Shown in pieces: positions 18,007 to 29,515 of a stretch of DNA of 64,000 bases. The stretch covers positions 34,095 through 98,094 of the forward strand of contig JAAYJU010000106.1 in assembly GCA_012522735.1 (NCBI GenBank). Direction: 5' to 3'. Both the position numbers and the translations under genes were made by a program. Origin of the DNA: Clostridiales bacterium. Its GTDB lineage: Bacteria; Bacillota; Clostridia; Lachnospirales; Lachnospiraceae. The first letter of the stretch is position 1. Each line of letters begins with the position of its first letter. The notes under the pieces are model-generated. The model did not search any database. It saw nothing but the letters and a program-made list of their open reading frames with translations, and had not been told where the DNA came from.

Positions 18007-18867
18007 CTAGCTAATATCATCGAATTCTAGATATGAACAAGGTATATGTGTCTTTCGCTCTTCAATAGGCGGTAATTTCATATAATTACGGTAAATTGAT
18101 CTTAAATACCAGTCATAATTACTGAAGCCAAAGAACAAATGGCCCTCAAACTCATATTCAGATAAATTTTTAAATATTTTTTTTGGAAACCCATAGGGAT
18201 AATCCTTAGGATGAGGAGAACACATGTGAGATATAAGCTCATGTTTCCTTTTATTATTATAATTTGCAATTAATAATTGTGTTTTCATTACGAGGTTTCT
18301 AGGTATCTTTGATAATATAGAATACCACATTCTCATTAATCGATTTGGGTGTACTCTTTTACCAGCTTCTGACCATAGTGTTTTTTGGATGCAATAACTA
18401 GTAAATAAATGTATCCTTCTTAATAATATATTGTCAGGGACCCCATCCATAATAAAGATATCCAAAAACACACCATCTTGAGCTGGTATGTGCTCATATC
18501 CTGCACGAACATATCTTGTGCCTTTTAATAATAATCTAGAATACCCCCATCTGTAATAAGGATCTGTCGTGTAATCCTGAAGGAAAAACCTTTTATGATC
18601 TAGTCCCCCCTTGCTCTTACAAACCATATAAAATCGCTCGTAATCTCTACGTAGTATTACAACATCTGCATCTGTATCCCATGGAATAAAGCCCTTGTGC
18701 CTGACAGCACCCAGTAATGTACCGCCGTCTATTGCATAAGGTATATTATATGCTCTGCAAATACGATCAAATTCCACAAGACAATCTAATATATTGCTTT
18801 GTAATCCTTTGACCTGTTCGTCAGTTAGCTCTATTATACTTATATTACTACGCATTTGATACTTCAT
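18007..18867 (-). CDS. LicD family phosphotransferase (paralogue 1)
   Basis: [21 protein letters not shown] signature, C-terminal [14 protein letters not shown].E.R. Confidence 0.9.
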   Translation of the reverse strand: [286 protein letters not shown]

Positions 18868-18869
18868 TC

Positions 18870-19937
18870 CTATTTACCTTCTAGATTGCATCTCATACTC
18901 TCTATAGTATTTTGTAGCATTTGCTCAAGACCTACCTCAGGTACAAAGCCTAAGCTTAATAATTTGTCAATGCTTAAGACAGCCCTCATTTCTGGATTAT
19001 AGCCTAATTCTTTACTATCGTGATTAATTTCAATTTTTACACCAATTCTGCCCATTGCCATTTTAGTTGCTATTAGCTTGGCCATATCATATATTGATAT
19101 TTCTGTATCAGGATTTGCCACATTATATGCCTCGCCATCTTCTCCTCTAAATAATATAAGAAATAAAGCTTTTGCACAATCTCTGATATAAAGATAATTT
19201 CTTACTGTCCTTCCCTCTGTGTGTAATATTATATCTCTTTCTTCAATTACACATCGTGCAAACTCTGCAAAGACTCGTTTATCATCATAAGCCACACCAG
19301 GTCCAAATGTTTGAGTCAATCTCGCTATTTTTATTGGTAGATTATATTCATATGCATATGAAAAGCATAGATTTTCAGCCATTCTTTTCCCTTCAGAATA
19401 GCTACTCCTTGGAGATGTTATATCTATATACCCATAGTCATTCTCATGTATATATGGTTTATCATCTCGGTGTCTCCCATATATCTCTAATGATGATAAA
19501 TATAAGAATCCATATAATTTTTGTTTTGATGCAAATTGGAGTATATTATTGGTACCTGATACAAGAGAAAGAATAGTTTCAACCGGGTGCTTTATAAAAT
19601 CGCCAGATTGGGTTGTATTAGCCCCATGAATAATATAATCAATATTAGTATCTATCTTAATCTCATCTCTAACATCTCCATATATGAAGTTTAGTTGCTT
19701 CATATCGACATAATCAGCATACATCCTCTCTGCTTTTTCCTTATTACGACAAAGAGCATATACTTTAATGTTATTACGGTTTTCTCTTTCATACTCAAGC
19801 AATACTTTAGTCAAAAAACTTCCAATTAAACCGGTTGATCCAGTTATAAGGAAGGTTCTATTCATTATCTGTGGAAAGCTTTTTAAATAAGCCTTCATAT
19901 TACTTATGTCATTTTCTAAATAGTTTACATTATTCAT
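18870..19937 (-). CDS. NAD-dependent epimerase/dehydratase (extended SDR), probable CDP-ketose reductase
   Basis: FLITGSTGLIGS, YLSSLEIYG, YSEGKRMAE (YxxxK), RLTQTFGPG. Confidence 0.75.
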   Translation of the reverse strand: MNNVNYLENDISNMKAYLKSFPQIMNRTFLITGSTGLIGSFLTKVLLEYERENRNNIKVYALCRNKEKAERMYADYVDMKQLNFIYGDVRDEIKIDTNIDYIIHGANTTQSGDFIKHPVETILSLVSGTNNILQFASKQKLYGFLYLSSLEIYGRHRDDKPYIHENDYGYIDITSPRSSYSEGKRMAENLCFSYAYEYNLPIKIARLTQTFGPGVAYDDKRVFAEFARCVIEERDIILHTEGRTVRNYLYIRDCAKALFLILFRGEDGEAYNVANPDTEISIYDMAKLIATKMAMGRIGVKIEINHDSKELGYNPEMRAVLSIDKLLSLGFVPEVGLEQMLQNTIESMRCNLEGK

Positions 19938-19938
19938 T

Positions 19939-20439
19939 CTAATTCTCCTGTTCTAACCCAACAGAATTAATAGCTTCTGTAATATTTAAAACATTTCCTA
20001 TTTTTTTCTTCAGCTCTTTAGTTACAGAGTCTATATTACCGAAGATTGATATCAGAATCACATCTGCACTAGGCAAATTGTCTTTTAATTTATATACTGG
20101 TAATGAATGATACAAATTATCTGCATTATTATCAATAAAATAAATCACCTCAACATTACTATCTTTAAGAGCATCATAAATAAGATAACCAATCTCTCCC
20201 ATTCCATAGATGGCAATACGATGATAGCCCGATCTCTCCAAATGGTTTGCTAGCGAATATCCAAGCTTATGTATAGCCACCCATTCAAGCATGAAATCAT
20301 ACTTACTTTTATTGAGTTCTATACTCTTATCCTTTTTGTGCTCCTGAACTTTAAGATACCGATTTTTTTTTTGTAAATCAATCACAAAATATGCTTGAAT
20401 AATAATTATTATTATAGTAGTTATAAAAAGATATATCAT
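19939..20439 (-). CDS. Membrane-anchored small Rossmann-like domain protein
   Basis: N-terminal TM helix, coiled linker, then RIAIYGMGEIG..YFIDNN. ATG at 20439 chosen from RBS spacing. Confidence 0.55.
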   Translation of the reverse strand: MIYLFITTIIIIIIQAYFVIDLQKKNRYLKVQEHKKDKSIELNKSKYDFMLEWVAIHKLGYSLANHLERSGYHRIAIYGMGEIGYLIYDALKDSNVEVIYFIDNNADNLYHSLPVYKLKDNLPSADVILISIFGNIDSVTKELKKKIGNVLNITEAINSVGLEQEN

Positions 20440-27803: not shown

Positions 27804-27815
27804 TTCGCTTGCCTC

Positions 27816-28754
27816 CTAAACCTTCACCTTTTTTAGAAGCTCTTTATAATCATCTATCTCAGGCTTAACTAGTTTTAGTGCAGAACATGGTATATGACTA
27901 ATACGTTGCTCCACCGGAGGTAGCTTCATATAATCTCCAAAGGTTCGTTTAAGTGCTTCATCATAATTGTGAACCGCCATAAATCTTCTTCCTTCGAAAA
28001 GCAATCTTATATATCCATGGTCCCAATTCAATTGTCCAATCTTCACTTTATAATAATCTTCTTTTGTTATACTGCGTGGATATCCCCATTTGCTTTCACT
28101 GTATGACGAAACCTTATGTGCCATATTTCTGCATAAATTTGTCCTGCTCTTTCCACTCCATTCAATAACCCAGTCTCTAAAATGAAAAACCATGTTTCTC
28201 GGAATAAAGCTCAAGGCCCTAAATAAAGCTCGCATAAAAGAATTAGGGTGTAGCTCTTTTCCAACAACAGACCATAAAACTTTGCGAATAAGAAAACAGG
28301 AAAAGCTATGAATTGGTCTTAATAAAGGATTATCTGGAACACTGTCAGCACATATTATGTCTACAAAAACACCATTTTTTGATTTTATCATTTCATGGCC
28401 TGCACGAACGAAGACAGTGTCTTTACGTAGAATACGAGCATAATTCCAACGATAATCCTTATCAGTTCTCCATTCCTGAAGAAAGAAGCGTTTCTTATCA
28501 AGCTCTGTTTTACATACTTCATAAAAACGATTATAATCCTCTCTATCCATAGATATATCCATGTCGGGATCCCAAGGAATAAAGCCCTTATGCCTTACTG
28601 CTCCTAGTAGGCTTCCGCCAGCCAAGCGATAAGGTATATGCTTCATGGTACATATCCTATCAATTTCAATTACCATTTCCAGCTGGATCAACTGTATACA
28701 TCTTCGCTCCTTAGCTGTTATAATTATTTCTCTATTTATTCTTTCTGCTTTCAA
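27816..28754 (-). CDS. LicD family phosphotransferase (paralogue 2)
   Basis: [21 protein letters not shown]; colinear similarity to 18007-18867. Confidence 0.9.
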   Translation of the reverse strand: [312 protein letters not shown]

Positions 28755-28789
28755 GATTTACTCCCGTTTTAATTAATGATATATAATAG

Positions 28790-29515
28790 TCATATCCCAT
28801 AAATCTGAGAACCTTCTTTGGCTTCATAAATTGCCTTAAAAATGTAATAATCATAAGCTGTTGTTATCTTGATATTTTCTTCAAGGCACTCTACTGTATG
28901 TAGTTCATACCCATAGGACTGCATCAGCTCTACTGAATCAATAATACGCTCTTTCCCATCCGCTAAAGCTCTATTATGAACCTCCCAAATATCCTTAACA
29001 AAAAAACTCTGAGGAGCTCGTGCTATAGATAGAGTGTTTCTTTTGTATACTTCACTAATAGTATTGTTATCTTCATCGGTACGTATAATGCTCTCTTTGG
29101 CAGGAACAACCGTGATACCTGATCCATACTTTCTAACAGACCTAATATTATCAGAAATAAGCTTTTCCGAAACAAATGGGCGAACTCCATCATGTATCAG
29201 CACAATATCTTCTTCTGATTTCGATTGATTATGTACTACTTTGATTCCATTATATATTGAACCCTGACCAGTATTTGCTCCTGGAATTACTGAACTTACT
29301 TTTGTAATATTAAAACGTCTAATTTGTTCCCATAATGTATTTATCCAATCATCAATGCACACAACAACAATATTATCGATTTCTTCATGGTATTCAAAAT
29401 TCTCTATTGTATAGATTAGTATTGATTTACCATGTAGCTCTAAGAATTGCTTTGGCTTAGTCTTACTATTCATTCTTTGCCCTGTTCCACCCGCAAATAT
29501 CATGGCAGTAACCAT
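28790..29515 (-). CDS. IspD/TarI family cytidylyltransferase
   Basis: IFAGGTGQRM..PKQFL, LIHDGVRP, APQSF, ENIKITT..D. Confidence 0.9.
   Translation of the reverse strand: MVTAMIFAGGTGQRMNSKTKPKQFLELHGKSILIYTIENFEYHEEIDNIVVVCIDDWINTLWEQIRRFNITKVSSVIPGANTGQGSIYNGIKVVHNQSKSEEDIVLIHDGVRPFVSEKLISDNIRSVRKYGSGITVVPAKESIIRTDEDNNTISEVYKRNTLSIARAPQSFFVKDIWEVHNRALADGKERIIDSVELMQSYGYELHTVECLEENIKITTAYDYYIFKAIYEAKEGSQIYGI

Follow-up and report, generated by a model that had tools for sequence, protein, structure and literature searches.

We analysed a 64,000-nucleotide stretch of a Clostridiales bacterium genome (assembly GCA_012522735.1, contig JAAYJU010000106.1, positions 34,095 to 98,094; hereafter the window). 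Following a flagellin gene, fliC, it encodes an IspD/TarI-family cytidylyltransferase, an extended short-chain dehydrogenase/reductase (SDR), two LicD-family proteins (LicD_a and LicD_b) and a candidate TagF-like phosphotransferase. An earlier note on this DNA had proposed that the locus makes a cytidine diphosphate (CDP)-alditol and adds alditol-phosphate to a cytoplasmically built O-glycan on flagellin. Our analysis supports that core proposal: with a probability of about 0.6, this is a flagellin glycosylation island whose enzymes make a CDP-alditol and transfer alditol-phosphate to the flagellin glycan. The grounds are the kinship of the SDR with HS5.17 of Campylobacter jejuni, the flagellar linkage found across nine other genomes, a 14-member LicD clade, the solubility of the enzymes together with the absence of export and ligation genes, and the precedent of FtaD in Clostridioides difficile.

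The minus strand holds every gene from 14.4 to 47 kb of the window (Table 1), and G+C content is 31-34% in the island and 37-41% in its flanks. The IspD, SDR and both LicD open reading frames (ORFs) are intact, at the coordinates and of the families that the earlier note gave. It had placed them directly after fliC and maf; both do lie upstream, but five genes separate maf from the IspD gene, and the wording is loose to that extent. Its observation that wzx/wzy, ABC exporter and LCP genes are absent from the island holds, and a screen of the 21 island ORFs by domain and hydrophobicity likewise found no gene for lipid-linked initiation, TagGH/Wzx export or LCP ligation. Island proteins have at most one predicted membrane helix each; the hydrophobic segments are the N-terminal helix of a 173-aa protein and the signal peptide of a 640-aa protein. 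As an explanation, a teichoic-acid or capsule locus was ranked low, export and ligation genes being absent from the island.

Table 1. Genes at the locus in transcription order, with window coordinates and the profile matches that support each assignment.
Feature	Position	Strand	Description and matches
fliC	36396-37214	minus	272 aa, D0/D1 and short Ser/Thr-containing loop; Flagellin_N 153 bits, Flagellin_C 90 bits
105-aa ORF	between fliC and maf	minus	
maf	34135-35973	minus	MptE-like 133 bits
HAD-like phosphatase	within 32136-35973, after maf	minus	small
NeuB	within 32136-35973, after HAD-like phosphatase	minus	296 aa, without SAF domain; NeuB 223 bits
NeuA/PseF-like cytidylyltransferase	within 32136-35973, after NeuB	minus	CTP_transf_3 87 bits
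GT2-TPR glycosyltransferase	31034-32092	minus	PF00535 71 bits, TPR repeats
TagF/TagB-family (FtaD-like) GT-B phosphotransferase candidate	29516-30991	minus	491 aa; PF04464 Glyphos_transf
IspD/TarI-family cytidylyltransferase	28790-29515	minus	PF01128 134 bits
LicD_b	27816-28754	minus	312 aa, no membrane segment; PF04991 128.6 bits
PS_pyruv_trans-family protein	26511-27803	minus	430 aa; PF04230 52 bits
PS_pyruv_trans protein	within insert 19939-26469	minus	365 aa; Pfam/NCBIfam
AKR-4Fe4S protein	23887-25368	minus	Pfam/NCBIfam
GT2	22466-23890	minus	474 aa; Pfam/NCBIfam
MenD-like thiamine diphosphate (ThDP) enzyme	20457-22469	minus	670 aa; NCBIfam menD (SEPHCHC synthase) 256.2 > 244.2
173-aa protein	19939-20460	minus	one membrane helix and Rossmann-like domain
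Extended SDR	18870-19937	minus	PF01370 134.8 bits
LicD_a	18007-18867	minus	286 aa; PF04991 121 bits
Secreted protein	15946-17868	minus	640 aa, signal peptide, S-layer SbsC_C C-terminal domain
Maf-N-like protein	distal end, within 15012-17868	minus	302 aa, resembles Maf N-terminal domain alone
lspA, ftsH	beyond Maf-N-like gene	minus	last in transcription order

CDP-alditol supply and candidate phosphotransferases

Besides its Pfam match, the IspD/TarI-family enzyme scores 186.6 against NCBIfam NF001183 (D-ribitol-5-phosphate cytidylyltransferase; cut-off 166). Its top PDB matches are the TarI enzymes 4JIS, 3F1C, 6XHP and 2VSH, with scores exceeding those of true IspD, and human ISPD (4CVH) is among its matches. 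A separate IspD, 34% identical to the window copy, lies elsewhere in the genome (contig C116). We rejected the window copy as a housekeeping enzyme of the methylerythritol phosphate pathway because of this second gene and the higher scores against TarI. The predicted product of the window enzyme is a CDP-ketose or CDP-alditol, formed from CTP and the corresponding ketose- or alditol-phosphate.

The top PDB match of the extended SDR is HS5.17 of C. jejuni (8V4G/8V4H; E 6.5e-51, 37.7% identity over 308 positions), with the next match at 2.7e-28, and the alignment takes in the unusual N-terminal helix of that enzyme. HS5.17 is a CDP-6-D-glucitol synthase, of known structure and kinetics, that reduces the CDP-6-D-fructose made by the PF01128 enzyme HS5.18; it is 30% identical to pneumococcal Mnp2 (PMC10918830). 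Nearly all of its side chains that contact the CDP or the alditol are retained in the window SDR, which also has the YxxxK motif. The conserved contacts to CDP, alditol and NADP(H) are, as HS5.17/window SDR, S100/S111, E140/E151, R164/R177, Y167/Y180, K171/K184, T195/T208, Q196/Q209, R208/R221, T227/T240, R233/R246 and Y295/Y313, while D212 is conservatively replaced by E225. Given this kinship and the retained contacts, IspD and the SDR most likely make a CDP-alditol, pentitol or hexitol, probably by way of a CDP-ketose, with the SDR as the predicted NADPH-dependent CDP-ketose reductase.

It is highly improbable that the product of the pair is instead some other CDP compound, such as a CDP-deoxy sugar or a CDP-ketose that is used without reduction. 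The substrate of the SDR is assigned by homology, and its NCBIfam matches include dTDP-glucose and CDP-glucose dehydratases, though far below their cut-offs. However, the dehydratase acid/base position is occupied by Leu150/Glu151, comparable to Met/Glu in HS5.17, where 4,6-dehydratases have Asp/Glu or Asp/Lys; lacking that pair, the SDR was rejected as a 4,6-dehydratase. The residues with which HS5.17 holds the open-chain alditol (Gln196, Arg208 and Glu140) are conserved, and IspD-family enzymes activate the primary phosphates of alditols and ketoses, not sugar-1-phosphates.

LicD_a and LicD_b each match PF04991 over its full length (profile positions 1-227; cut-off 22.6). They are paralogues, 44% identical over 295 columns (E 5e-84), and the motifs cited earlier as common to them (RFFLQ, YRW.Y, VRAG.E, VPDN.LLR.IH, HPN..MR and HIPCS.L) are all present in their alignment. 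Both align with the FKRP catalytic motif GGSLLGA.RH..IPWD.D.D, including the acidic D.D.D cluster, and the catalytic-motif residues are invariant in 16 orthologues. When an AlphaFold2 (AF2) model of LicD_b (pLDDT 86.3) was searched against known structures, FKRP chains were the sole matches at E < 1e-3 (probability 1.0), with a query-normalised TM-score of only 0.40, which is moderate; identity to FKRP is about 16% outside the catalytic motif. These are the only two LicD genes in the 2.8-Mb, 259-contig draft genome. That they may transfer alditol-phosphate from the CDP-alditol to a protein-linked glycan has contextual support, from their co-occurrence with IspD and the SDR and with flagellar genes.

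A third candidate phosphotransferase is encoded directly upstream of IspD, its stop abutting the IspD start. The earlier note had the island free of any TagB-type primase; this ORF contradicts that, scoring 26.9 bits against PF04464 (gathering score 22.1), with orthologues of 34-41% identity in every related module described below. The TagF-like gene thus belongs to the conserved module. Its AF2 model (pLDDT 90.9) has a GT-B fold that matches TagF, TarL, a capsule multienzyme and UDP-GlcNAc 2-epimerases, with probability 1.0; a PDB sequence search with the ORF gave no match. The same dual resemblance to TagF and UDP-GlcNAc 2-epimerases has been reported for CD0244 (FtaD) of C. difficile.

Related modules in other genomes

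A scan of genome contigs with LicD_b alone returned no relative, and an alignment-based scan returned mostly generic LicDs and missed the closest orthologues; these were recovered by a homologous-protein search together with the contigs that encode them. The module was found in the flagellar filament loci of at least nine other genomes: three of Paenibacillus, two of Brevibacillus, one each of Sporosarcina and Clostridium chromiireducens, a Clostridia metagenome-assembled genome (MAG) and, in part, Caldifermentibacillus. The module set comprises a family 2 glycosyltransferase with tetratricopeptide repeats (GT2-TPR), TagF-like, LicD, IspD and SDR genes, and lies within the interval from fliC to flaG-fliD-fliS or immediately next to it.

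In Brevibacillus nitrificans the order is fliC, two GT2-TPR genes, TagF-like, LicD_b, SDR, LicD_a, IspD, a hexapeptide acyltransferase, flaG, fliD and fliS, and the complete genome of Paenibacillus sp. SN-8-1 has the same order. Every gene from fliC to flaG is accounted for in these two genomes, and IspD is the only nucleotidyltransferase there. The Clostridia MAG, from two samples, has fliW, csrA, fliC, GT2-TPR, LicD_a, IspD, SDR, TagF-like, hexapep, LicD_b, a methyltransferase, a pyruvyltransferase, flaG, fliD and fliS. Paenibacillus solani and P. camerounensis carry TagF-like, LicD_b, pyruvyltransferase, LicD_a, IspD and SDR genes directly 3′ of fliC/flaG-fliD-fliS. One-LicD versions of the module follow fliC and GT2-TPR in Sporosarcina sp. 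ACRSM and a Brevibacillus MAG. Clostridium chromiireducens has two TagF-like genes, IspD, SDR and LicD about 2 kb from a flagellin gene, itself followed by flgB/C and fliEFGHI, and in Caldifermentibacillus hisashii fliC, GT2-TPR, TagF-like and LicD run up to the contig end.

IspD and SDR genes are adjacent or one gene apart in 8 related modules, and LicD_a, IspD and SDR are contiguous in 4 genomes. In every related module, the gene after fliC encodes a GT2 or GT2-TPR enzyme. The PS_pyruv_trans protein encoded beside LicD_b has orthologues of 49% identity in P. solani and the Brevibacillus MAG and a 430-aa one in P. camerounensis, making it a frequent accessory gene of the module. Flagellins beside the modules are 253-300 aa long with a short Ser/Thr-bearing loop, with the exception of that of Paenibacillus SN-8-1 (557 aa). 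Neither maf nor neuB was found in the loci of these genomes, so the module is independent of the Maf route that the window also contains. An uncultured Herbinix sp. MAG has flagellar genes 65-84% identical to those of the window and a GT2-TPR gene 76% identical, which places the window organism, of the Lachnospiraceae, near Herbinix.

LicD_b orthologues 62-67% identical were found in Paenibacillus, Brevibacillus and the Clostridia MAG, with LicD_a-type proteins on the same contigs; the nearest LicD_a relative (67%) is from C. chromiireducens. A maximum-likelihood tree was built from 106 LicD sequences of 86 loci, a sequence being counted as in flagellar context when flagellar genes lie no more than 10 kb away. 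The clade that contains both window LicDs has 14 members (SH-aLRT 96), every one of them in flagellar context. Within it the LicD_b subclade has 4 members (support 100) and the LicD_a subclade 6 (support 99), the latter all with IspD and SDR within 10 kb; in the inner clade, the same holds for at least 11 of 12 members. The separation of the two subclades indicates a duplication older than the spread of the module across genera. The flagellar label changes 5 times on the tree, against a mean of 16.9 when shuffled, and none of 500 shuffles was as low.

Other features of the island

Presumably the acceptor is the short fliC product. Elsewhere in the genome (contig C237:695-2296) there is another, longer flagellin gene, with identities of 57% in the N-terminal and 45% in the C-terminal part. 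Positions 36349-36375, between the fliC stop and the next ORF, form a perfectly palindromic hairpin (12-bp stem), which is probably the fliC terminator, so that the island may be transcribed separately or through read-through. It is the sole clear feature from a promoter and terminator scan of the window; counts from that scan were not above those for shuffled sequence, and no operon boundaries were therefore taken from it.

The region 32136-35973 (Maf, HAD-like, NeuB and NeuA/PseF-like) is a second, independent glycosylation route in the island. Its NCBIfam matches to PseD and PseF were below threshold, and no pse or leg dehydratase or aminotransferase gene was found in the window; the sugar is possibly Kdn- or Kdo-like. 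The GT2-TPR glycosyltransferase, whose top NCBIfam match is a sub-threshold one to the SunS peptide glycosyltransferase, is a candidate for adding the first sugar to flagellin Ser/Thr.

An insert at 19939-26469 splits the window module into two halves; it has no orthologues in loci L001-L006 and probably supplies further tailoring. Its MenD-like ThDP enzyme has no counterpart in the related modules and lies within a glycan island, beside AKR-4Fe4S and two genes of the pyruvyltransferase family. Within 19939-27803 we also observed a recurring Rossmann-like module, about 65-90 aa long, that has a Y/W-G-x-G motif and weakly matches PglD_N. It forms the C-terminus of four otherwise unrelated enzymes (MenD-like, AKR-4Fe4S, GT2 and the longer pyruvyltransferase-like protein) and stands alone behind the membrane helix of the 173-aa protein. 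Over 67 aa, the copies in the MenD-like and AKR proteins share 42% identity, and the module may be a shared docking or cofactor domain.

Proposed pathway and comparison with known systems

All steps of the pathway that we propose would take place in the cytoplasm, before flagellin export. GT2-TPR would set the first sugar on a Ser/Thr of the short flagellin. IspD would join CMP to a ketose phosphate, for example ribulose-5-phosphate, xylulose-5-phosphate or fructose-6-phosphate, and the SDR with NADPH would reduce the CDP-ketose to the CDP-alditol, as suggested by homology to HS5.18/HS5.17 and Mnp1/Mnp2. TagF-like, LicD_a and LicD_b would then each move alditol-phosphate to an acceptor hydroxyl of their own, giving phosphodiester-linked units, and the pyruvyltransferase-family and other window-specific enzymes would probably tailor the product. 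We infer the donor, the acceptors, the order of steps, the number of units and the division of labour among the three phosphotransferases from the assignments above.

A more specific version is tentative and somewhat doubtful. In it the enzymes would form a fixed relay, with TagF-like priming a flagellin-linked N-acetylhexosamine and LicD_a and LicD_b adding one unit each in the manner of fukutin and FKRP, to give a short oligo(alditol-phosphate), a cytoplasmic "mini teichoic acid". On a wider view, GT2-TPR, TagF-like and LicD would be a general Firmicutes scaffold served by exchangeable CDP-alcohol donor cassettes: IspD with SDR, a TagD-like/oxidoreductase fusion, or a nucleotidyltransferase/aminotransferase fusion.

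Several points weigh against the alditol-phosphate reading of the island. For this organism and its relatives, alditol-phosphate on flagellin is a prediction from gene content. The window IspD and SDR genes are 8.8 kb apart, not adjacent, and the hairpin 3′ of fliC leaves a shared transcript with fliC unsupported. The fold search with the TagF-like ORF does not tell TagF-type transferases from UDP-GlcNAc 2-epimerases. The island also holds the Maf route and, at its distal end, the secreted S-layer-like protein, and the acceptor is a candidate only. Two further islands have other donor cassettes: the Herbinix MAG (L038:7726-12699) pairs TagF-like and a 539-aa LicD with an NTP_transf_3/aminotransferase fusion, and a Parasporobacterium MAG (L007:6697-12170) has LicD, TagF-like and LicD with a fusion of a TagD-like cytidylyltransferase to a GFO_IDH_MocA oxidoreductase. 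The flagellar LicD clade is thus not tied to alditols as such. Gene-content variability of this kind is typical of flagellin glycosylation islands, and it suggests that donor cassettes behind the GT2-TPR/TagF-like/LicD scaffold are swappable. Finally, IspD with SDR also occurs in loci of uncultured Bacilli, Clostridia and Ruminococcus with no flagellar genes within 10 kb (L021:8176-10819, L067:9974-16737 and L078:6548-8357), with LicD close by in at least L021 and L067; these are presumably polysaccharide loci and the source from which the cassette was recruited.

The sister islands with non-IspD cassettes beside LicD and TagF-like bear on the possibility that a CDP-alditol is made but used by only one of the three phosphotransferases, while the other LicD or TagF-like takes a different head group (phosphocholine, glycerol-phosphate or phosphoethanolamine, for instance) from a CDP donor whose genes lie outside the island. 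CDP-choline is the donor of classical LicD enzymes, both window LicDs partially match the Mf1 cholinephosphotransferase model of NCBIfam, and Caldifermentibacillus has GT2-TPR, TagF-like and LicD without IspD on the stretch that was recovered. We nevertheless consider such a mixture of donors unlikely, since licA, licC and tagD-type genes were not found in the island, B. nitrificans and SN-8-1 have TagF-like and two LicDs with no nucleotidyltransferase other than IspD between fliC and flaG, and LicD_a is contiguous with IspD and SDR in four genomes, as noted above.

The non-flagellar loci with IspD, SDR and LicD bear on another alternative, that the module decorates a cell-wall polymer, an S-layer glycan or another part of the envelope, and lies near fliC because both share a hypervariable surface-structure island. 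The classical roles of TarI-like, TagF-like and LicD proteins are in teichoic-acid or capsule synthesis, the window also encodes a secreted SbsC_C-domain protein, and the pyruvyltransferase-family genes are reminiscent of CsaB-type pyruvylation of wall polymers. An envelope target is quite unlikely, however: the island lacks an initiating phosphoglycosyl transferase, flippase, polymerase, ABC exporter and LCP ligase, its enzymes are all soluble, several families have the module within fliC...flaG-fliD-fliS operon regions, and the LicD clade is specific to flagellar contexts.

CDP-donor phosphodiester modification of flagellin glycans is already known in C. difficile and Pseudomonas aeruginosa. 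Our search, which left most subscription journals outside its reach, found no literature linking LicD-family enzymes, CDP-alditols or the CDP-ketose-reductase route to flagellin, except for a 2016 survey in which two enterobacterial flagellin islands are noted, from genome data, to contain ribitol genes (PMC4875605). If the alditol-phosphate reading is true, this would be the first bacterial protein glycan known with alditol-phosphate, and the first action of a bacterial LicD-family enzyme on a protein O-glycan. The recently established "post-glycosylation modification" of flagellin in C. difficile would then be one instance of a broader, modular system shared by soil and gut Firmicutes, with relevance to how flagella assemble, to surface charge and to recognition by phages and the host. 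The chemistry of fukutin, FKRP and ISPD on dystroglycan fails in muscular dystrophies, and small, soluble enzymes paired with their donor pathway could be tractable models or tools for ribitol-phosphate transferases. Harmless carriers in culture exist in P. solani, P. camerounensis, B. nitrificans and C. chromiireducens.

The wall teichoic acid ribitol-phosphate pathway shares with the window a TarI-like cytidylyltransferase, the TagF/TarL-family fold and, as predicted here, alditol-phosphate phosphodiester chemistry. It differs in having a TarJ-type medium-chain dehydrogenase/reductase, lipid-linked initiation, an ABC exporter and an LCP ligase, which the window locus is without; the window enzymes also lack membrane association and lie in a flagellar gene context. 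The pairing of a PF01128 enzyme with an extended SDR bearing an N-terminal helix is that of C. jejuni HS5.18/HS5.17 (CDP-6-D-glucitol) and Streptococcus pneumoniae Mnp1/Mnp2 (CDP-mannitol). Those pairs, however, feed lipid-assembled, exported capsule or lipopolysaccharide polymers, whereas the window pair lies in a flagellin island without export genes and its two genes are separated.

In mammals, ISPD, fukutin and FKRP place tandem ribitol-5-phosphate on the O-mannosyl glycan of alpha-dystroglycan. The island resembles this system in its predicted IspD-family supply of CDP-alditol and in two paralogous LicD-family enzymes with GG.LLGA.RH..IPWD.D.D. The likeness lies in the genes and in the match of the LicD_b model to FKRP; for the island, a tandem order, ribitol as the alditol and the acceptor would be conjecture. 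Unlike fukutin and FKRP, the bacterial enzymes are small and soluble, without stem and transmembrane domains, and a TagF-like third transferase is present; unlike in the ISPD route, reduction probably comes after cytidylyl transfer, by the CDP-ketose route.

In the Type A system of C. difficile, the GT2 FgtA (CD0240) glycosylates FliC with N-acetylglucosamine (GlcNAc), and CDP-N-methylthreonine is the donor from which the TagF-like FtaD (CD0244) adds phospho-N-methylthreonine to the GlcNAc of GlcNAc-FliC, as established by mutants and in vitro reconstitution; PA1088-1091 of P. aeruginosa are the counterpart of FgtA and FtaABCD (CD0241-0244) (PMC10714395; bioRxiv 10.64898/2026.02.12.704994). 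The island shares with Type A the GT2 and TagF-like GT-B genes beside fliC, a short flagellin and a cytidylyltransferase for the CDP head group, with TagF-like and FtaD likened by family and fold, not by direct alignment. Its predicted donor is a CDP-alditol from IspD and SDR, not CDP-N-methylthreonine, and two LicD-family transferases are added in the window. The domains of FtaA (ThrH-like), FtaB (phosphocholine-cytidylyltransferase-like) and FtaC (S-adenosylmethionine methyltransferase) were found in none of the island ORFs, so the island would work like Type A but is not a member of it. Type A is the nearest proven system, and shows that a CDP-donor phosphotransferase can act on GlcNAc-flagellin.

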